Shown here: positions 13,033 through 62,761 of the stretch, in pieces
How the letters are laid out: each line of letters opens with the position of its first letter
Position numbering within the stretch: the stretch's first letter is position 1
From: Dehalococcoidia bacterium
GTDB taxonomy: Bacteria > Chloroflexota > Dehalococcoidia > DSTF01 > JACRBR01
NCBI GenBank assembly: GCA_015478665.1
Contig: JADMII010000012.1
Coordinates: 13,202 to 77,201 of the forward strand
DNA length: 64,000 nucleotides
Direction: 5' to 3'
The notes under the pieces: generated by a model
Database searches by the model: none
Told to the model about the DNA's origin: nothing
Seen by the model: the letters and a program-made list of their open reading frames with translations, nothing else
Translations under genes and position numbers: made by a program

Positions 13033-13035
13033 ACC

Positions 13036-15435
13036 GTGGCCGCAAGGACGCGCACGAAATCCGGCGCGCGCGGGCGCTCCGGCAAGGCGGCGGTGAAGGC
13101 GGTCGGCCGCCGCCGCTCCGGGCAGTCGGCGTACCAGACCGTGCACGATCTGCTGATCCGGCGCGAGAGTGTGGGCGTCGGGCTGTGGGTCATCGCGCTG
13201 CTGCTGATCCCGTGGGTGTCGCCGCTGCTACCGCCGCTCATCGACCTGCGCGACCGCGTCGTTTCGACCTTCGCGCTGCTCACGTTCGCCTGGATCGCGC
13301 TGCTCGCCTGGGCCGGCTGGCTCGTCGTCCGCGACGAGCAGGCGCGGCTCTGGTCGCGCTGGAAGCCATGGGCGGTCGGCGTGCTGGCGGCGTTGTTCCT
13401 GATGGGCTTCTTCGGCTTCTTCGCGCCGCGCTGGCACCTCGGCAACGTGCCGATGACCCGGCACAGCGCCGGCGGCGACATCGGCCGCGAGCTCGTGAGC
13501 AACCCGCTCGGCCTGCTGATCTGGCTCGCGGCCGGCATCGCCGCGTTCGCCTTGGCCGCGCCGGAGACAGCCGCGGCGGCGATGCGGGAGGCGCCGAACG
13601 CCGCCCGGACGGCGTGGGGCTGGCGCATCCCGCACCGCATCGGCCTGGCGACGAAGCGCGGCTTCGAGTTCATCTTCCCGACGCGCGCCACGCCAAAGGG
13701 CTCCGTGCAGGTGCCGCTCGAATCGGTGCTCTGGGCGCAGTCTTCGGGCGCCGCCACGGCGGACGAAGAGGACGCCAAGACCGACGAGGAAGCGGCGGTG
13801 CAGGCCTCACTCTTCCCGGAGCTCGACGCCGCGACGGAGGAAGAGGACGATGCCCCGAGCGTGACGGTCGACGCGAAGGGCAACCGGCGCTCGCGCGACG
13901 GCTGGCAGTTGCCGTCGATGGACGTACTGGCGGACAAGGCGCCCGTCGAGAACGGCCGCAGCGATAGCGCCGTCCGCGCCTCTGTCATCGAAGAGACGCT
14001 GGCGAGCTTCGGGGTCGATGCGAAGGTCGTGCAAGTGAACGAAGGGCCGACGGTCACGCAGTTCGGCATCGAACCGGGCTGGGACATCAAGACGCGCACG
14101 GTGATGGAGCGCGACCGCGACAACAAGCCGGTGCCTGACAAGGATGGCCGCCCGAAGACGCGTACCGAAGAAGTGTCACGCACGCGCGTCCGCGTCCAAC
14201 AGATCACGTCGCTGGCGAACGACATCGCGCTGGCGATGGCGGCGCCATCGATCCGCATCGAGGCGCCGGTGCCGGGGAAGCCGGTGCTGGGCATCGAAGT
14301 GCCGAACACCACGCTGGGCCTCGTGACGCTGCGCAGCGTCGTGCAGAGCGCGCAGTTCCAGAAGCAATCGTCGAAGAGCAAGCTCACGATCGCGCTGGGG
14401 CAGAGCGTCGCCGGCGAGGCGGTTGTCGCCGACTTGGCGCGCATGCCGCACCTGCTGATCGCCGGCGCCACGGGCTCAGGCAAATCCGTCTGCATGAACG
14501 CGATCATCTCCTGCGTGCTGATGCACGCATCGCCGGCGGAGGTGCGCTTCGTGATGATCGACCCGAAGCGCGTCGAGCTGTCGGCGTTCAGGCCGATCCC
14601 CCATCTCGCGTTCTCGAACATCGTCGTCGAGATGGACCAGGTCGTCGGGACGCTGCAGGCGGTGATCCAGGAGATGGAGGCGCGCTACCGCAAGTTCGCG
14701 GCGATCGCCGTGCGCAACATCGAGGGCTACAACCGGAGCCCGCGCGCCGGCGACAAGCTGCCGTACTGGGTCGTCATCATCGACGAGCTGGCGGACCTGA
14801 TGATGGCGGCGCCGTTCGAGGTCGAACGCCAGATCTGCCGGCTGGCCCAGCTCGCGCGGGCGACGGGCATCCACCTGGTCGTCGCGACGCAGCGGCCGTC
14901 GGTCGACGTGATCACCGGCCTGATCAAGGCGAACTTCCCAACGCGCATCGCCTTCGCCGTGAGCTCGATGGTCGACTCGCGGACGATCCTCGACATGGCC
15001 GGCGCCGAGAAGCTGCTGGGGCGCGGCGACATGCTCTACATGGCGCCGGACGCGGCGAAGCCGAAGCGCCTGCAGGGCGTGTACGTCTCCGACGAGGAGA
15101 TCGAGCGGCTCGTCGGCTTCTGGACGCAGGAGCGCTTCGCGGACATCGAGCGGCCGGTCTTCGACTCGCTGCTCGACGAGGCGAAGGCCGCCCTCGAGGC
15201 CGAAGGAGCGAGCGACGACATGTTCGAGCGCGCCAAGGAACTCGCGCTCGAGCACAACCGCGTCTCGACCTCGCTGCTCCAGCGGCGGCTGCGCATCGGC
15301 TACCCGCGGGCGGCGCGGCTGATGGATCTGCTCGAAGAAGCGGGCGTCGTCGGCGCGGCCGAGGGCGGCGGCTCGCGCGAGGTGCGCCAGGCCGAAGCAC
15401 GCACGCTGGATGTGCCCGAAGAGCTGCCGTTCTAG
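13036..15435 (+). CDS. ftsK: DNA translocase FtsK/SpoIIIE
   Basis: N-terminal TM segments, Walker A LIAGATGSGKSVCMNAIISCVL, and a C-terminal gamma/winged-helix domain. Confidence 0.85.
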   Translation: MAARTRTKSGARGRSGKAAVKAVGRRRSGQSAYQTVHDLLIRRESVGVGLWVIALLLIPWVSPLLPPLIDLRDRVVSTFALLTFAWIALLAWAGWLVVRDEQARLWSRWKPWAVGVLAALFLMGFFGFFAPRWHLGNVPMTRHSAGGDIGRELVSNPLGLLIWLAAGIAAFALAAPETAAAAMREAPNAARTAWGWRIPHRIGLATKRGFEFIFPTRATPKGSVQVPLESVLWAQSSGAATADEEDAKTDEEAAVQASLFPELDAATEEEDDAPSVTVDAKGNRRSRDGWQLPSMDVLADKAPVENGRSDSAVRASVIEETLASFGVDAKVVQVNEGPTVTQFGIEPGWDIKTRTVMERDRDNKPVPDKDGRPKTRTEEVSRTRVRVQQITSLANDIALAMAAPSIRIEAPVPGKPVLGIEVPNTTLGLVTLRSVVQSAQFQKQSSKSKLTIALGQSVAGEAVVADLARMPHLLIAGATGSGKSVCMNAIISCVLMHASPAEVRFVMIDPKRVELSAFRPIPHLAFSNIVVEMDQVVGTLQAVIQEMEARYRKFAAIAVRNIEGYNRSPRAGDKLPYWVVIIDELADLMMAAPFEVERQICRLAQLARATGIHLVVATQRPSVDVITGLIKANFPTRIAFAVSSMVDSRTILDMAGAEKLLGRGDMLYMAPDAAKPKRLQGVYVSDEEIERLVGFWTQERFADIERPVFDSLLDEAKAALEAEGASDDMFERAKELALEHNRVSTSLLQRRLRIGYPRAARLMDLLEEAGVVGAAEGGGSREVRQAEARTLDVPEELPF

Positions 15436-19795: not shown

Positions 19796-21622
19796 TCAGG
19801 CGCCGGACGCAGCCGCCGGCGGCACGCTCGTCTCCGCCGGCGTGTCGCGCTGCTGGAGGAGCCAGAGGCGGAAGTAGCGGCCGCGCCGCGCGAGCAGCTC
19901 GTCGTGGGTGCCCGTTTCGACGATCTCGCCGTGGTGCAGCACGATGATCCTGTCGGCGTCGCGGATCGTCGCCAGCCGGTGGGCGATGATGATGCTCGTG
20001 CGCCGCGCGGTCAGCCGCTCGAGGCTCTCCTGGATCAGCGCCTCCGTCTCGGAGTCGATGCTGGCAGTCGCCTCGTCGAGCACGAGCATGACTTCCGGGT
20101 CGAAGGCGACCGAGCGCGCGAAGGCGAGCAGTTGCTTCTGGCCGGTGCTGAGGTTGGCGCCGCGCTCGACGAGCTGGTGCTGGTAGGTGTGCGGCAGCTC
20201 GTTGATGAAGCGATCGGCGCCGACGAGGCGGGCGGCGTCGCGCACCCGCTCCATCGGGATCGACTCGTCGCGCAGGCGGATGTTCTCTTCGATCGTGCCG
20301 GTGAAGATGAAGGGGTCCTGAAGCACGAGGCCGATGTGCTTGCGCACCTGGTGCTGGCGGGCATGCGCGATGTCGATGCCATCGAGCAGGATGCGGCCGT
20401 GCTGCACGTCGTAGAAGCGCAGCAGCAGGTTGATCATGCTCGACTTGCCGGCGCCCGTCGCGCCGACGAAGGCGATGCGCTCGCCGGGCTCGATGCGGAA
20501 GCTCACGTCCTTCAGCACCCAGGTGTCCGGCACATAGGCGAACGACACGTGCTCGAACTCGACGGCGCCGGCGATCTTCTCCGGCAGGTCGACGGCGTCG
20601 GGTATATCCTGCACGCCCTCCGGCTCGTCCATCAGCGTGAAGATGCGCTCGAGGGCGGCCATCGCCTGCTGCAGGATGTTGAAGCGGTCGGCGATCTCGC
20701 GCACGGGGTTGTAGTACATCGCGACGAGCAGGATGAAGGCATAGAGGCGGCCAATGGTCAGCTGGTCGTTGAGCACGAAGCGGCCGCCGACGACGATGAT
20801 GATGCCGGTGGTGATCGCGCTGACCATCGCGACAACCGGCTCGAAGAGCGCGAACTGGTGCACGACTTCCAGGTTGGCGTCGAGCAGGCGCCTGTTGTGG
20901 ACGGCGAACTCCTGCCGGTCGCGACGCTGGCGCCCGAAGAGCTGGACGAGCAGGATGCCGCCGATGTGCTCGGCGACGAAGCCGTTGAGCCGCGCGACGT
21001 GCAGCCGCTGCCTCCGGAACGCGTTTCGCATGGCGACGGCGAACCAGCGCATGAGCACCGCGAGCACCGGCACGATCGCCAGGGTGATCAGCGCAAGCTT
21101 CCAGTCGATCACGAGGAGGGCGATGGCGACGCCGACGATCATGAACAGGTCGGCGATGATCGTGATCGCGCCGGCCGTGAGCAAGGCATCGAGCGCGACG
21201 ATGTCGTTCGTCAGCCGCGTCACCAGGCGGCCGACGGGATTCGCGTCGTAGAAGGCGATCGACATCCGCTGCAGATGGCGGAACAGCTTGAGGCGGATGT
21301 CGTTCATCACCTTCTGCGAGACCAGCACCATCTGCACCGACTGGACGTAGCGGAGGACAAACATGAGCACGAGGATCGCCAGGTACGCCGTGACGATCCA
21401 CCAGAGATCCTTCGTCGTCCCTTTGGCGACGTCACGGTCGATCGCCTGCTGCACGAGCAGCGGCTGCGCGAGCTGGAGGGCGGTGGTGATCAGCAGCAGG
21501 CTGACGGCGAGGAACACGCGCAGCCGGTGGACGCGCATGTGCGACCAGAGCCGGCTCACCAGCCGCTGGTCGTACGCCTTGCCGATCGCATCGTCCTCTT
21601 CGTTGTAGCCGTGGATCGCCAT
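19796..21622 (-). CDS. ABC exporter, fused permease/ATPase half-transporter (MsbA/type I exporter-like), subunit B
   Basis: Six-TM exporter domain plus an NBD with Walker A GATGAGKSS, the signature LSTGQKQLLAFAR, and Walker B LVLDEATASID. The ATG at 21622 lies 2 nt after the stop of the upstream ABC gene. Confidence 0.8.
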   Translation of the reverse strand: MAIHGYNEEDDAIGKAYDQRLVSRLWSHMRVHRLRVFLAVSLLLITTALQLAQPLLVQQAIDRDVAKGTTKDLWWIVTAYLAILVLMFVLRYVQSVQMVLVSQKVMNDIRLKLFRHLQRMSIAFYDANPVGRLVTRLTNDIVALDALLTAGAITIIADLFMIVGVAIALLVIDWKLALITLAIVPVLAVLMRWFAVAMRNAFRRQRLHVARLNGFVAEHIGGILLVQLFGRQRRDRQEFAVHNRRLLDANLEVVHQFALFEPVVAMVSAITTGIIIVVGGRFVLNDQLTIGRLYAFILLVAMYYNPVREIADRFNILQQAMAALERIFTLMDEPEGVQDIPDAVDLPEKIAGAVEFEHVSFAYVPDTWVLKDVSFRIEPGERIAFVGATGAGKSSMINLLLRFYDVQHGRILLDGIDIAHARQHQVRKHIGLVLQDPFIFTGTIEENIRLRDESIPMERVRDAARLVGADRFINELPHTYQHQLVERGANLSTGQKQLLAFARSVAFDPEVMLVLDEATASIDSETEALIQESLERLTARRTSIIIAHRLATIRDADRIIVLHHGEIVETGTHDELLARRGRYFRLWLLQQRDTPAETSVPPAAASGA

Positions 21623-21624
21623 CG

Positions 21625-23385
21625 CTACCTCAGTGCCTCGATGTTGTGGGCGTCGTCGTCGACGAGCTCCTGTTCGAGCCGCTGGCGGCGCGCGAGCCGC
21701 GCGTAGGCGCCGTCGCGCGCGACGAGCTCGTCGTGCGTGCCGCGCTCGACGATGCGCCCGTCCTCGAGCACGATGATCTGGTCCGCCCACTTCACCGCCG
21801 AGACGCGGTGCGCGATGACGACGGCCGTGCGGCCGGCGATGAACTCGCGCACGCCGGAGAGAATGCGCTCTTCGGTGTAGGCGTCGACGTGCGACAGGGC
21901 ATCATCGAGCACGAGCACGGGCGCCGTGCGGGCGAGCGCGCGGGCGATCGAGGCGCGCTGCTTCTGGCCGCCGGAGAGCGAGACGCCGCGTTCGCCGACG
22001 AGCGTGTGTATGCCCTGTGGCATCTGCGGCAGGTCGTTCGACAGCTGGGCGAGTTGCACCGCCTGGTCGAGGTGCTGAAGGTCCACGTCGCCGCCCCAGG
22101 TCACGTTCTCTTCGAGCGTCGCGGAGAAGAGGAACGACTCCTGCGGCACGAAGGCGATCGCCCGGTGCAGTTGCGCGAGCGGGATGTCGCGCACGTCGTG
22201 GCCGTCGATCGCCACGCGGCCCGAGCGCACGTCATAGACGCGCGCGATCAGGTTCACCAGCGTCGTCTTGCCCGAGCCCGTCGGGCCGACGATCGCCAGC
22301 GTCGATCCGGCGGGCACGTCGATCGAGATATCGTGCAGGACGGGGCGGCTGAAGTAGCCGAAGTTCACGCGGTCGAAGGTGATGCTGCCGCGCAGCGCCT
22401 CCACCTCGCGCACGCCGGGCGCATCGACAACGACCGGCTTTCGGGCGAGCACTTCCTCGACGCGCGCCATCGATGCGGCGGCCTGCTGGTACATGTTCAG
22501 CGTCCAGCCGAGGTTGATCATCGGCACGGACAACAGCACGACGTAGCTGTTGAACTGCACGAACTGCCCGAGTGTGATGGCGCCCGTCGCTACCTCGCGC
22601 GCGCCCATCCAGAGGACGATGACCGTGCTGAGGCCGATGAGCACGGCGAGCATCGGCCAGAGCGCCATCGACAGACGCGCCCAAGCGACGTTCATGCGCT
22701 CGAACGCGACGGCCTGCTTCTCGAAGGCGGCCGCCTCGTTCTCCTCCTGGACGTAAGCCTTGACGACCCGCGCGCCGGAGAAGTTCTCTTGGACGAAGGT
22801 CGTCAAGCTGCCGAACTGCGTCTGAACCGCGTGGTAGCGCTTCTCGACCACCTGACCCACCCAGACGAAGATCAGCGTGATCAGCGGCAGCGGCAGCGCG
22901 GCGATGAGTCCGAGCTTCCAGTCGATGACGAGCATGAAGGCGAGGCCGTAGATGAACAGCAGGATCGACCGGACGAGGTCCATCAGGCCCGGGCCGAGGA
23001 TCTCGCGGACGGTCGTGACGTCGTTGGAGACGCGGGCCATGAGGTCGCCCGTCTGGCTGTCCTGGAAAAACTTCTGGTCGAGGGACTGGATGTGCGCATA
23101 CACATCGTCCCGGAGGTCGTACTCAATACGACGGGAGGAGCCGCTGACGTAGTGGCGGGTGACGAAGCGGAGGGCGCTATCGGCCGTCTGGATGGCAACC
23201 GTGAGCGCGGCGAAGAGGACCAGCTCGCGGACGGGCTTGCCCTGCCGCAGGGAGTCGACGGCGAGGCCGAGGATGTAGGGCGCGGTGATGCTGGCGCCCG
23301 CCGCCAGGGCGAGCGCAAGAAGGCCGATGGTCATCCTCAGCCGGTAGCGGAGGACGTACGGGAACAGGCGCGAGACGAAGACCAC
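21625..23385 (-). CDS. ABC exporter, fused permease/ATPase half-transporter, subunit A
   Basis: Walker A GPTGSGKTT, signature LSGGQKQRASIARAL, Walker B LVLDDALSHVD. Confidence 0.8.
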   Translation of the reverse strand: MVFVSRLFPYVLRYRLRMTIGLLALALAAGASITAPYILGLAVDSLRQGKPVRELVLFAALTVAIQTADSALRFVTRHYVSGSSRRIEYDLRDDVYAHIQSLDQKFFQDSQTGDLMARVSNDVTTVREILGPGLMDLVRSILLFIYGLAFMLVIDWKLGLIAALPLPLITLIFVWVGQVVEKRYHAVQTQFGSLTTFVQENFSGARVVKAYVQEENEAAAFEKQAVAFERMNVAWARLSMALWPMLAVLIGLSTVIVLWMGAREVATGAITLGQFVQFNSYVVLLSVPMINLGWTLNMYQQAAASMARVEEVLARKPVVVDAPGVREVEALRGSITFDRVNFGYFSRPVLHDISIDVPAGSTLAIVGPTGSGKTTLVNLIARVYDVRSGRVAIDGHDVRDIPLAQLHRAIAFVPQESFLFSATLEENVTWGGDVDLQHLDQAVQLAQLSNDLPQMPQGIHTLVGERGVSLSGGQKQRASIARALARTAPVLVLDDALSHVDAYTEERILSGVREFIAGRTAVVIAHRVSAVKWADQIIVLEDGRIVERGTHDELVARDGAYARLARRQRLEQELVDDDAHNIEALR

Positions 23386-23525
23386 AGGGACGCCTTTGCG
23401 GATGGGTTACAGGTCCTAGTGTAGGGCACGACAAACGAGTTCGGGTAGAGTAGAATCATGGTGCTTACCCGAAGCCGGGATCGTGAGGATGACTTCACGT
23501 ATCGCTTGACACAGACAGGTGTTTC

Positions 23526-55209: not shown

Positions 55210-57213
<2,004 letters not shown>

Positions 57214-57620: not shown

Positions 57621-60600
57621 CTACTCCGTGAGACGGCGGTAGAGCGTCGGCAGGCGCCGCGGGAGTTGTTCGATGTCGGCGACGACTTCGTAGCCCATGT
57701 CTTCGCACATCTGGCCCAGGTAGTCGTGCCCTTCCTTGTCGACGGTGAGCGCGAACGGCGTGATGCCTTTGCGGCGCGCTTCCTGCAGCGCCTGCTTCGT
57801 GTCGTGGATCGCGTACTCCTTCTCCGTCCGGTCTCGGCCGTAGCCGTGGTCCTGCGGGCGCCCGTCGGACACGAGCATGAGGATCTTCACCTTGGCGTCG
57901 TACGCGTCGAGCTTCGCCGTCGCGTGGCGGATCGCCGGGCCCATGCGAGTCGAACGGATCGGTGAGACCTTGTCGATGCGCTTCTTCACCTTGTCGGTGA
58001 ACTGCTCGACGAGATCCTTGATCACATAGAACTCGACGTTGTCGCGCCCGTAGCCGCTGAAACCGTAGATGCCGTAGCTGTCGCCGATCGTCTCGAGCGC
58101 CTTGATGAAGAGCACGGTGCTCTCCTTCTCCAGGTCGATGATCCGCTTCGGCGGCGCGATCGACTGGGAGGCGCGCCGCTGCGCGAGCCACTGGAAGTAC
58201 TTGCGCGGGTCGTCATCGAAGTCCTCGTCGTCCATGTACTTCTGCTTGCGCTTCTCGATCTCTTCGTCGGTCGATGCGCTCATGTCGAGCAGGAAGGCGA
58301 CCGCGACGTCGCGTTCGACCTTGTTCCGGCGCCAGTAGATCTTGTCGGTGTAGCTGTGTCCCGCTTTGCGTTCGATCGCGTAGTCGATGACCGCATCCAG
58401 GTCGAACTCTTCGCCGTCGAGCAGCTTCTTGATCTTGCGGAAGAGCTCCGGCTTCAGCAGCTCGAACTGCTTGCGGGTCTCGTTGACCAGCGCGGCGTGC
58501 TCGCGCAGCGTGTCGTCGAAGTAATCCGCGCCGCCCTCTTCGAGCGGGCGCTCCTGCACCCGGCACCAGCGCGGCTTGTAGTCCGCCGCCCGGAAGTCCC
58601 ACTCGTCGTAGTAGAACGACTTCACTTCGACCGGCGGCTCTTCGTTGTCCTCGCCGTCACCGTCGGCTGCCGGCTGGCCGTCCTTGAGCTCCTTGTTCTG
58701 GTCGCCGATCGGCGTGCCGGCTTCCTTCTCGAGATTCGAGAGGAACAGCCCGAGCGTCGACGCCAGGTCGCCCTCCGCCATCGCCCCGACCGTGATCTCG
58801 ACGCTCTTCTCCAGCAGCTCCTTCAGCTGCTCCGGCGAGAGCGGCGAGAGCTCGCCGTTCTGCTCGACCTCGCCGTCTTTCAGCCGCAGCCGCATCAACA
58901 GCTGCACCAGCTCCGGCTTGAAGTCGCCCCGGAAGTCCACCTGCTCCGGGCTCTCATACGCCTGCTCCGCCCCCTGCGGCATCGGCGGCTGCGCGTCGTC
59001 GTCGGCGGGCCCCGGCGGCGACATCATCAGCTGCATCGACTCTTCGCTCACCGTCTCCCAGTCCAGCTGACTGAGCTCCTCCGGCGCGATGTTCGGCACC
59101 CGCGCGACGACGTCGTACAGCGACAGCGTCGCTTCCGCCGCGTCCTCGACGCGCGCGCCCTTCTCGCGCACCGCCCACAGCGTCTGCACGGCCTGGTGCA
59201 GCACCGGTTGCAGCGCCGCCGGCCAGACCATCGTCTGTGCGCCGTCCAGGCTCGCGCGCACAAGGTTCTCGACGAGGGCCTGGCGCAGCGGCAGTGCGTT
59301 CGGCGCCAGCCGCGCCTCGAGCTCGTTCTCCTGCGTGCGGCCCCAGGCGCGGCGGATGCCGCCGTACTCGCGCCGCACCAGCGTGTCGATGCGCGTGTCT
59401 TCAGTCAGCGCGAACAGGTCCGATGCCAGTTGGCGGTCGTCGAACAGGTCGAAGAAGCGCTCCATGTCCGTCATCGGCCCTGTCGCGCGCTGCGAACCCT
59501 TGCCCTCGGCCCGTCGCTCCTCCTCGCGCTCGCCGCGCCGCGACGGCAGCACGGCGGCATCGCGGCTGAAGCGGAACAGGAAGCTGCCGAACTCCAGGTG
59601 CGCCGCCTGATGCGTCGCGAAGACCTTGTACACGGAGAAGTTCTGGTCGCGGTCGATGAACTCTTCGACGAACTCCGGCAGGTAGACCGTCGTGCCCTCC
59701 GTGCTCGGCCGGTTCTCGCTCACCCAGCCGATGCCCTTCTCCGCCAGGTACGACACCGGGTTGATCGAGACGTTCGCGCCGGTGAGCGCCTTGCAGTACA
59801 GCCGCAGCACTTCGCCGACGCGGCTCAGCTCGACCCGCGACGACAGCTGCTGCAGCACCTCCTCGCCGCGGCCGGATTCCAGGCGGAAGTACGCCTCCCC
59901 GCCCTCGACGTTCTGCTCGAGGATGCGGTGCCCCGCGGCGTGCCAGTTCGCCAGCTCGGCGATCCGAATCCGCTTCAGCACTTCGGGCGAGCTCTTGAGG
60001 AACTCCATCGCCGCCGTCGGCGACGCCACCGCCAGCTCCTCCGCCATCGAGAGCAGGTCGTGGTGGGTCTGCTCCGGCACCGTCGCCAGCGCCGACGCCC
60101 CCTCGGCGAACAGGCCGTAGGCGTGCCGGCCGCTGCGTCGCGCCACCGCCGCCGCCAGCGCCAGGAAGCGGCCGCGCGCCGATGCCTCGATCGGCGCCAG
60201 CAGGTTCGGCGAGCGCTCGAAGCAAATCCGGACGTCGGCCCACGATGCTTCGCCGACGGCCGTCGCCAACGTCAGGAACGGCGCCCGGTCCGGCTTCGCC
60301 AGCGACGCGAAGAGGTGCGGCGCCGCGTCGAGGCACGCCGTCGCCAGCTCGTACGAGCGCTCGGCGACGGACTCGACGAGCGCCACCAGCCGCGCCATCT
60401 CGGCGAGCGGCAGCGCGGGCAGCAGCTTCGGGCCGGCGCCGAAGTACACCGTCGCCAGCGAGATCGACTTCCAGTGCCCCTTGTACAGCCGTTGCCCCAG
60501 CGCCGCCCACTCTGTGAGCCGCCGCTCATCGAGGAACGGTACGGACGCCGGGCTCGCCCTGAAGTAGGCGCCGGCGACGACCGAGGAGTACTCCGCGAGG

Positions 60601-60869
60601 TCGCGGCCGGCGTGCGCCCAGCGCCGAAACGACGGCGTCGGCAGCAGCCGCATCACCTCACCGGAGACCCCCACGTAGTCGATCGCCGCTTCCCACGACC
60701 GCAGCGAGTGAGCGGCGAGCGCGACGCACTCGTCGGTCCAGGCGCGGAAGTCCGCTTCGGCGAGCGCACCCCGCAGCTCGCCTGCGACGCGCCGGAACTC
60801 CGCCGCGAGCTGCGGCGAATGCGTCGCGAGCCTCGCCTCGACCTCCGTCAGATACGCATCGTCGATCAT
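57621..60869 (-). CDS. Large VWA-domain protein, CbbO/NorD-like (MoxR-ATPase partner type), orphan
   Basis: The C-terminal ~230 aa form a VWA with MIDAS LLDMSASTD (DxSxS). The N-terminal ~800 aa are uncharacterised and contain HQAAHLEFG. 1082 aa. Confidence 0.6.
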   Translation of the reverse strand: MIDDAYLTEVEARLATHSPQLAAEFRRVAGELRGALAEADFRAWTDECVALAAHSLRSWEAAIDYVGVSGEVMRLLPTPSFRRWAHAGRDLAEYSSVVAGAYFRASPASVPFLDERRLTEWAALGQRLYKGHWKSISLATVYFGAGPKLLPALPLAEMARLVALVESVAERSYELATACLDAAPHLFASLAKPDRAPFLTLATAVGEASWADVRICFERSPNLLAPIEASARGRFLALAAAVARRSGRHAYGLFAEGASALATVPEQTHHDLLSMAEELAVASPTAAMEFLKSSPEVLKRIRIAELANWHAAGHRILEQNVEGGEAYFRLESGRGEEVLQQLSSRVELSRVGEVLRLYCKALTGANVSINPVSYLAEKGIGWVSENRPSTEGTTVYLPEFVEEFIDRDQNFSVYKVFATHQAAHLEFGSFLFRFSRDAAVLPSRRGEREEERRAEGKGSQRATGPMTDMERFFDLFDDRQLASDLFALTEDTRIDTLVRREYGGIRRAWGRTQENELEARLAPNALPLRQALVENLVRASLDGAQTMVWPAALQPVLHQAVQTLWAVREKGARVEDAAEATLSLYDVVARVPNIAPEELSQLDWETVSEESMQLMMSPPGPADDDAQPPMPQGAEQAYESPEQVDFRGDFKPELVQLLMRLRLKDGEVEQNGELSPLSPEQLKELLEKSVEITVGAMAEGDLASTLGLFLSNLEKEAGTPIGDQNKELKDGQPAADGDGEDNEEPPVEVKSFYYDEWDFRAADYKPRWCRVQERPLEEGGADYFDDTLREHAALVNETRKQFELLKPELFRKIKKLLDGEEFDLDAVIDYAIERKAGHSYTDKIYWRRNKVERDVAVAFLLDMSASTDEEIEKRKQKYMDDEDFDDDPRKYFQWLAQRRASQSIAPPKRIIDLEKESTVLFIKALETIGDSYGIYGFSGYGRDNVEFYVIKDLVEQFTDKVKKRIDKVSPIRSTRMGPAIRHATAKLDAYDAKVKILMLVSDGRPQDHGYGRDRTEKEYAIHDTKQALQEARRKGITPFALTVDKEGHDYLGQMCEDMGYEVVADIEQLPRRLPTLYRRLTE

Positions 60870-61286
60870 GTCTCAGTGTATCGAGCGGCCGTCGTTAACC
60901 CACGCTTCGATACACATCAAGGACGGGACATGGCCGAACGCAGGCCGTCGGCGGTCACGAGATAACGAGCGGTGCGATCGCCCCATCGCCGCCGTCGCGC
61001 ATCGGACGGGAACTGGACCGAACGGTGAGGCGTAGACCATGGCTGAGCCGCCGGTCAGACTTGCACAAAAGGTGGAGTAGAAACGGAGGCAAGACCAAAC
61101 CCGGTCGGACTCTCCCAATGAGTGGTACAGAGATCGGGGGCAGGTCGTATGTCGACGTCGTCGTCGCGTAGCTCGTGTAGGGGCGGCCGTGCCGGTGTAC
61201 TGCGTGGCAGTGCTCGTGCGCGCGGCGGGGTTGCTCGTCTTGATCGTCTCGAGAGACTCCCGTCGGCGGTGCGAGCCAGCAGCGAA

Positions 61287-61560
61287 GTGAGGCGAACGGC
61301 GATCACGATCGGAGTCGACGCACACAAACGCGTCCATCAGGCCCTCGCGCTCGACGCGGACGGTCGCGAGAGCGGCCGGTGGCGCGGGCCGAATTCTCGA
61401 GCCGATTGGCGCCGCTTGCACCTCTGGGCCGGCGGGGAGCATGTCTGGGGGATCGAGGGCGCGTGGAGCCACGGGCGTGGTCTTGCGCAGGCGGCGGTCC
61501 GATCGATGGAGGGAATCTCATGGATGCCGAGAATAGCGCGATACGATGGTGGCGGTCACG
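61287..61560 (+). pseudogene. IS110-family transposase N-terminal fragment (truncated)
   Basis: AITIGVDAHKRVHQALALDADGRESGRWRGPNSRADWRRLHLWAGGEHVWGIEGAWSHGRGLAQA matches the DEDD N-terminal domain of IS110 transposases (IGIDxHKxxH...W.IE...G). The rest of the transposase is absent. Confidence 0.45.
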
Positions 61561-61789
61561 AGAACGAGCGCGAGGAAGCGACGAGAGCGATTCGTCCGTC
61601 CATGATCCCGAGGACGATCAAGAGTGCAAGCGCAACGCAGATTGACATCACCGATGCGAACGTCTGATTTACTCGGCGCATTGAGGATGAGACCCACGCT
61701 CCGAAGCCAACGGTGGCGATAACAAAGAGATTCTTGTCCTTTGTCGCTCCTGCTAAAACAATGAACGCAAGGCTGGATGCGAGCAGCAA
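61556..61789 (-). CDS. Hypothetical small hydrophobic protein in low-GC patch
   Basis: 77 aa with two TM-like segments, inside the ~300-bp lower-GC region 61540-61860. Confidence 0.15.
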   Translation of the reverse strand: MLLASSLAFIVLAGATKDKNLFVIATVGFGAWVSSSMRRVNQTFASVMSICVALALLIVLGIMDGRIALVASSRSFS

Positions 61790-61975
61790 GAGGTCGAAGG
61801 CCTGTTGTTGCCGCGTCTTAGGACATCTGGTAGGCCATTCAGGGCAGAGACACTACACTAGACGCGCCGGCCGGGAGCGATCGCGGCGCTGGCGCGGACG
61901 GCGCATGCGTCCCTCGATTGATCTCGGGCAGGTCGCGCAGAAGTCGCGAGCATGATCGTTTGATGAGGACGGACG

Positions 61976-62613
61976 ATGTCTCTCAAATTGTCGGTGGCGC
62001 TGGCTCTGGCAGTCACGGTGACGTTTGCCTCGCAAGCGCGGGTTGGTATCGCGCAAGAGAAGCCGGGCCTCGGCGGGTCGGCTGGGATTTCGGGCACGGT
62101 GACGTTCACGGATGGAAGGCCGGCGGCGGGTCGGCCCGTCGAGTGGCGACCTCGTGGCGATCCGAACGGTGGAAGCACGCTCCAGACGGACAACATTGGG
62201 TCGTATGCAATTCAAGGCTTGAAAGACGGCGAATATTTCGTCGGATACTTTCTACCGAGCCGTGTGCCACGCGATAAGAACCCGAACGTCGAGAAGGCTC
62301 CCGATGTCAATTCACCGGCATTTGATGACCTCGGTGTGCCGCTAATCCGGCGAGTATTGATTGTGAACGGAACATCGGTCAAAGGCGTGGACTTCGTTAT
62401 CACAGACACAGGAAACGAAAGCTTCGCCGGCCCTGACAGTGGAGGCGCTGCTCAGCCAAGTCTTCCGGCAACTGGTGCTGGTGCGGAAGCTCGCCCAGCC
62501 GACGCGGCCGCACCTGGCCGGCGCCAGGCGCGGCCGCAGCAGCTGTCGTCGGCATCATCATCGGTGCCAGTTCGATGGCGCTTGGAACGAAGTTGAGGCG
62601 TCGCAACGGCTAG
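61976..62613 (+). pseudogene. LPXTG-type cell-surface protein (CarbopepD_reg-like domain), sorting signal interrupted by frameshift
   Basis: Signal peptide MSLKLSVALALAVTVTFASQA, then GTVTFTDGRPAAGRPV (carboxypeptidase-regulatory-like), then LPATG at 62462-62476. The expected hydrophobic anchor and charged tail (AAAVVGIIIGASSMALGTKLRRRNG*) are encoded in a different frame, ending at 62613. Confidence 0.45.
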
Positions 62614-62761
62614 CACCGGGCTGCGCTACACCCCGAAGCGGGGGCAGTGCGCCGGGGAACGACGGTGTTCAACCGGAGCGCCGGTCGTCGCATCGCCGCC
62701 GTGGCACTCGCCGGCACCGCGACCCTATCGCCGATCCTGCCGTCCTCCGCCGCTGCAAACC

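Follow-up and report, generated by a model that had tools for sequence, protein, structure and literature searches.

A long-form CbbO-like VWA adaptor of Chloroflexota whose CbbQ-type ATPase is probably encoded elsewhere in the genome

Introduction

MoxR/VWA pairs are common, and the clients of few of them are known (Rubisco, cNOR, fumarate reductase and a few others). The window analysed here, a 64-kb stretch of DNA from a Dehalococcoidia bacterium (contig JADMII010000012.1, positions 13,202 to 77,201), contains a gene for a VWA protein of the CbbO/NorD type, 1082 amino acids (aa) long, with no gene for a CbbQ- or NorQ-like ATPase beside it. Is this gene an orphan whose partner was lost, does it encode a VWA protein with a new function, or is it one part of a machine whose other part lies elsewhere? 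The comparisons described below make the last answer very likely: the gene would encode the VWA adaptor of a CbbQ/NorQ-type AAA+ remodelling machine (MoxR class, AAA_5 plus CbbQ_C) whose gene cluster has been split, placing the ATPase at another site in the genome. Judged from its sequence, the protein is a CbbQ-dependent VWA adaptor from a long-form CbbO-like subfamily, so far uncharacterised, that occurs widely in Chloroflexota; a literature search returned no description of this Chloroflexota system.

The VWA gene and its C-terminal module

The minus-strand open reading frame (ORF) at 57621-60869 starts with ATG, and its translation matches NCBI MBF6600508.1 without a difference; that record is a 'VWA domain-containing protein' encoded on an 80.8-kb contig of a Dehalococcoidia metagenome-assembled genome (MAG). 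The G+C content at third codon positions (GC3) is 0.93 on the minus strand, identifying that strand as coding and the overlying 869-aa plus-strand ORF as a shadow of the kind typical in 69 % GC DNA; GC3 and composition of the gene fit the host. Comparison of the whole gene with clade members gave a dN/dS (omega) of 0.12-0.33, indicating purifying selection. A scan for sigma-70 promoters and terminators around the gene yielded nothing useful. A homologue search returned 692 matches, the best 120 of which are 58-100 % identical to the protein, and full-length relatives of about 1080 aa number in the hundreds in Chloroflexota. Pfam recognizes a single domain in the 1082-aa protein, VWA at 913-1059. 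The NCBIfam scan gave zero matches, a silence that is uninformative on novelty since bona fide CbbO has no NCBIfam match either.

The gene and the features of its C-terminal half are as follows.

57621-60869, minus strand: complete gene for the long-form CbbO/NorD-like VWA adaptor, 1082 aa
58623-58919, minus strand: acidic linker, residues 651-749, partly conserved and modelled with low confidence (predicted local distance difference test, pLDDT, <50); matches the flexible NorD linker by position
58308-58622, minus strand: beta-hairpin (750-775) and helical finger (782-850), residues 750-854; assigned from the NorD 354-474 alignment, the structural model and Foldseek (dN/dS 0.06-0.13)
[quoted passage not shown]
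58155-58253, minus strand: family-specific acidic helical insert right after the MIDAS loop, residues 873-905, with helices at 873-879 and 888-904; conserved in the family and a gap in the NorD and CbbO alignments
57696-58154, minus strand: rest of the VWA domain with MIDAS residues T974 and D1002, residues 906-1058; assigned from Pfam, NorD alignment, conservation and Foldseek
57624-57695, minus strand: C-terminal helix and tail (…LPRRLPTLYRRLTE), residues 1059-1082, counterpart of the NorD C-terminus; assigned from the NorD alignment and invariant residues (dN/dS 0.01-0.12)

The best solved-structure match to this protein is NorD (cryo-EM structures 9qh6, 9qhd-g; PMC13036017, PMC9976466). 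The C-terminal 330 residues match solved NorD in the PDB with a phmmer E of 8.5e-35, and the family profile does so with an E of 8.1e-44. The full-length structural model was poor over the VWA part and the C-terminal 348 aa (735-1082) were therefore remodelled (predicted template modelling score, pTM, 0.75); this model superposes on the VWA-plus-finger chain of NorD from the NorQ-NorD cryo-EM complex over the whole target (Foldseek against 9qh6_G, E 3e-20, TM 0.74). The MIDAS is complete, consisting of D862, S864 and S866 of the DMSAS motif (residues 862-866) together with T974 and D1002; these residues align with those of the NorD MIDAS, and none of them varies among 58 family members. Directly preceding the MIDAS strand, as residues 403-448 do in PdNorD, is the finger, a helical protrusion in the predicted model; residues 750-871 align with NorD 354-474. 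Across the same 58 members the finger holds twelve invariant residues (P807, R811, D818, G819, E820, D825, Y845, W846, R847, R848, N849 and K850) and the tail seven (L1069, P1070, R1072, P1074, L1076, R1078 and T1081), and the C-terminal end is in register with the ends of NorD and CbbO. The original identification of a CbbO/NorD-type VWA protein is thus borne out by the NorD and CbbO matches, the MIDAS, the finger and the tail.

In NorD, the finger enters the NorQ pore and contacts the H2 inserts, while the C-terminus docks on NorQ's post-sensor-1 loop; finger and tail are both functionally required, and the linker (242-393) is essential (PMC13036017). Within the clade to which the window belongs, in which the ATPase gene is unlinked (see below), the most constrained parts of the protein are the finger, the VWA domain and the C-terminal tail (omega 0.01-0.13). 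Constraint on the gene that is strongest at these parts agrees with a retained ATPase partner.

Location of the ATPase gene

A Walker-A scan of the entire 64-kb window and tblastn with two CbbQ sequences detected no CbbQ/MoxR-like ATPase, in keeping with the earlier statement that neither flank carries one. Three large P-loop NTPase ORFs are present at 13033-15432 (plus strand), 19799-21901 (minus strand) and 21628-23406 (minus strand), with the Walker A sequences GATGSGKS, GATGAGKS and GPTGSGKT, respectively; by tblastn they are unrelated to CbbQ. The window ends 3.1 kb upstream of the VWA gene, and in window-clade relatives no ATPase was found upstream of the VWA gene over distances of up to 10 kb.

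Gene order was compared in 126 related loci (L001-L034, L039-L130) taken from annotated contexts, GTDB species genomes and JGI metagenomes; L035-L038, gammaproteobacterial CbbQ/CbbO loci from the GTDB scan, stand outside the 126. Loci whose VWA protein is 46-69 % identical to that of the window carry a CbbQ/NorQ-type ATPase gene 0.9-5 kb upstream of the VWA gene and on the same strand, with three exceptions among loci that have enough upstream DNA. The linked ATPases consist of AAA_5 plus CbbQ_C and are 68-87 % identical to one another. In these clusters coaE precedes cbbQ, and genes for a secreted cyclophilin (ppi) and a metallophosphoesterase (mpe) often follow it. The coaE gene (dephospho-CoA kinase) lies directly before cbbQ, with a 4-nt overlap in L047 (9381-10912), and the pairing is kept down to 46 % VWA identity; it also occurs in L002, L004, L044, L046, L129 and most of L059-L127.

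Every relative at least 75 % identical to the window protein (about 25 GTDB species and 12 metagenomic loci, 10 of the 12 with at least 5.5 kb of upstream DNA) lacks coaE, cbbQ and the cyclophilin gene in its flanks. The neighbourhoods of these loci are unrelated to one another, although the metallophosphoesterase gene is often kept 0-7 kb upstream of the VWA gene. Complementary coaE-cbbQ-ppi loci with no VWA gene within 10 kb occur on many contigs. A CbbQ search seeded from an unlinked locus reached OY969567.1. This 3,617,538-bp chromosome has its VWA gene, a member of the window clade, at ~2.10 Mb and, ~0.9 Mb away at ~3.01 Mb, an intact coaE-cbbQ-ppi cluster. The CbbQ encoded there is intact: Walker A and Walker B are present, as is the H2-insert motif GRYLLEGGST; in NorQ, this motif contacts the NorD finger (PMC13036017).

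The arrangement shared by about 35 clade loci in unrelated contexts predates the insertion sequence (IS) event in the window. The orphan state is thus one of clade-wide unlinking and was not made by the IS, and most likely the ATPase partner has moved elsewhere in the genome across this lineage rather than having been lost.

The upstream breakpoint

The surroundings of the VWA gene comprise the following features.

55210-57213, plus strand: ftsH, convergent neighbour on the downstream side, in synteny with the closest relative
60906-62760, no strand assigned: non-syntenic upstream patch, defined by the synteny break with the closest relative
about 61308-61484, plus strand: IS110-like transposase N-terminal fragment in the patch (PF01548)
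61976-62596, plus strand: secreted CarboxypepD_reg/LPATG ORF within the patch, probably truncated

The convergent ftsH was seen where it had been described. The IS110 remnant reported on the other flank stands in part: a low-GC stretch (~61500-62500, GC 0.58-0.62 against 0.69 for the window) accompanies an IS110-like match, but the patch ORF matches the IS110 transposase N-terminal profile weakly (PF01548, 16.7 bits), under the cutoff of 29. The 206-aa ORF at 61976-62596 has a signal peptide, a CarboxypepD_reg-like domain (sub-threshold in Pfam) and an LPATG motif with no membrane anchor after it; it probably represents a truncated surface protein of the sortase type.

L128, the closest relative with flanks, is 87 % identical over the gene at the DNA level and falls in the same 90 % protein cluster. 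It has in common with the window the VWA gene, a further 36 nt on the upstream side and the convergent ftsH, and synteny stops at 60905, 36 nt before the start codon; other clade members have no flank synteny with the window. Upstream, L128 carries haem-biosynthesis genes, an acetyltransferase and a DUF433/DUF5615 pair, and no ATPase. The IS110-like patch therefore marks a breakpoint at 60905/60906 and removed no partner gene; as read from the sequence comparison, it is a rearrangement breakpoint at which the promoter-proximal flank was replaced. Toxin-antitoxin pairs lie at or near several rearranged cbbQ and VWA junctions (DUF433/DUF5615 at 7053-7741 in L128; also L046 8334-8806 and L047 15340-16066), the types found being DUF433/DUF5615, HicAB and PIN/PhdYeFM, which suggests that rearranged junctions are hot spots for small mobile cassettes.

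These data bear on the proposal that the VWA gene is a true orphan, its partner lost, for instance via an IS110-associated rearrangement, so that the protein is a relic or acts alone. The absence of an ATPase from the window and a breakpoint lying 36 nt before the start codon, beside an IS110-like fragment, are what such a loss would leave behind. We nevertheless consider it very unlikely, because the unlinked state is older than the IS event, L128 has the DUF433/DUF5615 pair and haem genes rather than an ATPase at the IS position, the ORF is intact and under constraint that is strongest in the ATPase-contacting parts, and a chromosome of the same clade retains cbbQ. The earlier suggestion that the partner was lost through the neighbouring IS event is, on the same observations, not supported.

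Neighbourhoods differ from one clade member to the next, and toxin-antitoxin pairs and an IS fragment lie close by in the window and L128, which could also be taken to mean that the gene belongs to a MoxR-VWA anti-phage or conflict system or is mobile-element cargo. This is highly improbable: PADLOC returned 0 families for the VWA protein and P-loop-level matches only for the ATPase, the family is conserved vertically at 46-100 % identity with an ancestral housekeeping-type operon (coaE), and the gene is host-like in GC3 and composition and single-copy per locus, with no flanking repeats seen, though no search aimed at them was made. As this case shows, a lone VWA adaptor gene need not imply a lost partner; it was the gene-order history across relatives that settled this.

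The N-terminal region and comparison with CbbO and NorD

The N-terminal part of the protein contains the following segments.

60186-60869, minus strand: residues 1-228, extra helical-hairpin repeats (alpha-solenoid) that do not align to canonical CbbO; duplicates of the repeat at 286-329
59835-60185, minus strand: residues 229-345, helical repeats in common with canonical CbbO (CbbO 79-~190), from hhalign and BLASTP
58920-59834, minus strand: residues 346-650, alpha/beta plus helical domain shared with CbbO, ~346-520 being zincin-like
59586-59612, minus strand: HQAAHLEFG segment, residues 420-428, a CbbO-type motif across the family

The original prediction had presented ~800 N-terminal residues as uncharacterised and possibly novel. 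They are indeed without Pfam or NCBIfam matches, but relatives are abundant (1092 representative clusters match the region, many of them 1000-1130 aa long, at just 27-50 % identity) and homology to CbbO begins at residue ~229. The reference CbbO was a 793-aa protein from a gammaproteobacterial cbbL-cbbS-cbbQ-cbbO operon (locus L038), confirmed as such by Pfam. Using hhalign, family columns 229-1079 align to CbbO 79-792 over 702 columns (prob 99.95 %, E 2.8e-38), and BLASTP aligns residues 273-404 to CbbO 122-249 (E 1e-6). Residues 229-1079 are thereby placed as a standard CbbO body, HQAAHLEF included, and the novelty of the N-terminus is largely removed. The full-length model is confident over residues 1-650 (pLDDT ~90) and has 18 helices over 1-345, after which comes an alpha/beta domain. 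Internal repeats were found, residues 12-73 matching 89-150 (prob 96.9 %) and 61-104 matching 286-329 (prob 93 %), and the repeat at 286-329 falls within the part shared with CbbO. By these sequence matches, residues 1-228, lacking in CbbO, are additional copies of a helical repeat already found in CbbO.

The HQAAHLEFG segment singled out earlier is conserved, but as a family-wide CbbO-type motif ('AAHCAAHMV' in CbbO), and it confers no novelty. It lies in the zincin-like part of the protein, on a helix reading T-H420-Q-A-A-H424-L-E, and is followed downstream by E490-D491-x-R-I-D, the family motif EDARID, which is 'EDARIE' in CbbO. The HEXXH signature with catalytic Glu that, together with a third ligand, marks zincin (gluzincin) metallopeptidases was not found in this domain: the motif reads H-Q-A-A-H, its catalytic position being occupied by Gln, and its second His is variable. 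The resemblance to the minigluzincins proabylysin (4jiu), projannalysin (4jix) and selecase (4qhf) is at the level of fold only; the catalytic Glu of HEXXH is replaced by Gln in this protein and by Cys in CbbO, distant family members do not all keep the second His, and a sequence-level match is absent. The domain is most likely a non-catalytic scaffold.

Overall, the family is collinear with CbbO. Both have the helical repeats, a domain with H-x-x-x-H … E-D-A-R-I-D/E, a YDEWD hairpin, the finger, the MIDAS VWA domain and an LP-x-RLP C-terminal tail, and in most of the subfamily a CbbQ-type ATPase, 55 % identical to gammaproteobacterial CbbQ, is encoded upstream. They differ in that this protein is ~290 aa longer, with ~150-230 extra N-terminal residues (the repeat expansion), ~100 extra in the middle and linker and an extra 24-33-aa acidic insert after the MIDAS loop, and in that the VWA module is just 29 % identical. 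In genomic context, the subfamily has no nearby Rubisco gene (~110 loci), its operon is coaE-cbbQ-ppi-mpe-VWA, and the window clade is unlinked from cbbQ. NorD shares the VWA domain, finger and tail as well as the overall plan (N-domain, flexible linker, VWA), and the NorQ H2-insert motif GRxLLxxxxT is present in Dehalococcoidia CbbQ; in contrast, NorD is 638-646 aa long and without the insert after the MIDAS loop, and nor genes are not near the VWA gene. The insert, residues 873-905 (…KRKQKYMDDEDFDDDPRKYFQWLAQRRA…), adjoins the MIDAS DxSxS loop and is absent from both CbbO and NorD; its proximity to the client-binding site suggests that it is a subfamily-specific interface.

The client

The closest characterised relatives of the protein are CbbO and NorD, and JGI pipelines name family members NorD or nitric oxide reductase 'activation protein'. 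Could it then be an ordinary CbbO, serving as Rubisco activase adaptor, or an ordinary NorD, the chaperone for FeB insertion into cNOR, with its client genes placed elsewhere, given that screening for Rubisco and nor genes was confined to the loci? No Rubisco large-subunit gene was found in 80 metagenomic loci, and neither PF00016 nor a nor or haem-copper-oxidase gene (PF00115) was found beside the VWA gene in annotated contexts. The conserved partners are instead coaE, the secreted cyclophilin and the metallophosphoesterase, and the protein departs from CbbO in the identity of its VWA module, its length and the subfamily insert by the MIDAS. We therefore hold a conventional CbbO or NorD to be unlikely, and the client is probably neither Rubisco nor cNOR.

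Clustering of flanking genes recovered only coaE, cbbQ, the cyclophilin and the metallophosphoesterase, with no other conserved candidate client, and the neighbours in the window (ADH, hydrolase, luciferase-like oxidoreductase, MA-type peptidase, RF2, endonuclease V, GAF-HD and GGDEF-EAL) offered no client candidate. An aa3-type cytochrome oxidase operon (COX2-COX1-COX4-COX3) lies divergently beside coaE-cbbQ in L044/L045 (4749-8670) and L129/L130 (4757-8664), an arrangement of interest because NorQD services a haem-copper-oxidase relative. Haem-copper oxidase was rejected as a family-wide client, the COX genes beside coaE-cbbQ being confined to one lineage. Of the earlier idea of a new function for this VWA protein, what is left is narrower: it concerns the subfamily's client, for which no candidate emerged.

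Model and implications

We propose a model in which the ancestral gene order was coaE-cbbQ-(cyclophilin)-(metallophosphoesterase)-VWA and the cluster was split, in the lineage of the window, between the cyclophilin and metallophosphoesterase genes, leaving the ATPase elsewhere and the adaptor gene alone. One adaptor would plug a CbbQ hexamer, with the finger (aa ~782-850) in the pore and the C-terminal tail on a post-sensor-1 loop of CbbQ, while the MIDAS site (D862/S864/S866/T974/D1002) would grip a client protein by an acidic residue. Specificity for the client and/or a second grip on the ATPase may come from the N-terminal repeat and zincin-like domains; in MoxR-associated VWA proteins, whose N-domains are variable, these domains have been proposed to confer specificity (PMC9976466). 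ATP hydrolysis would then pull or twist the linker, and the client would be remodelled. We infer this physical complex and its mechanism by homology with NorQD and CbbQO.

Several observations weigh against a split machine with a working partner. The VWA gene of OY969567.1 contains four single-base frameshifts. These are probably homopolymer assembly errors in high-GC DNA, as other long-read MAGs of the project have frameshifts too (the MFD loci affected are L022 10819-14065, L033, L034 and L043) and none of the short-read copies does; a pseudogene is nonetheless a conceivable alternative for this copy. No CbbQ of the accession series of the window assembly (MBF66…) was among the matches listed, and we infer the presence of cbbQ in the window's own MAG from the same-clade genome. 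The native promoter region has, by the synteny break, been replaced by the patch, such that expression here is not assured and may be altered. Finally, the N-domain matches that of NorD only over a non-significant stretch (346-425 against NorD 36-124).

The analysis defines a large, strongly conserved Chloroflexota subfamily in which a long-form CbbO-like protein is paired with a CbbQ at least 68 % conserved, in an operon with coaE. In JGI pipelines the ATPase of this VWA family carries the label 'NorQ' and the family itself 'nitric oxide reductase NorD/activation protein', with nor genes not nearby. These labels could inflate denitrification calls in metagenomes or metaproteomes, where detection of NorQ has been taken as NO reduction (PMC6081418). 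Should it be confirmed that the N-domain of the CbbO/NorD type has a zincin-like shape, this would offer a structural starting point for understanding client recognition by these adaptors.

A further possibility, to which we give somewhat less than an even chance, is that coaE-cbbQ-…-VWA is a housekeeping MoxR/VWA machine of Chloroflexota with a client other than Rubisco or cNOR, that is, a third branch beside CbbQO and NorQD. If so, the enlarged repeat and pseudo-zincin N-domain and the acidic insert by the MIDAS would define a new client interface, and the conserved association with coaE would be a clue to a link with metabolism that depends on CoA, or with some other core process.

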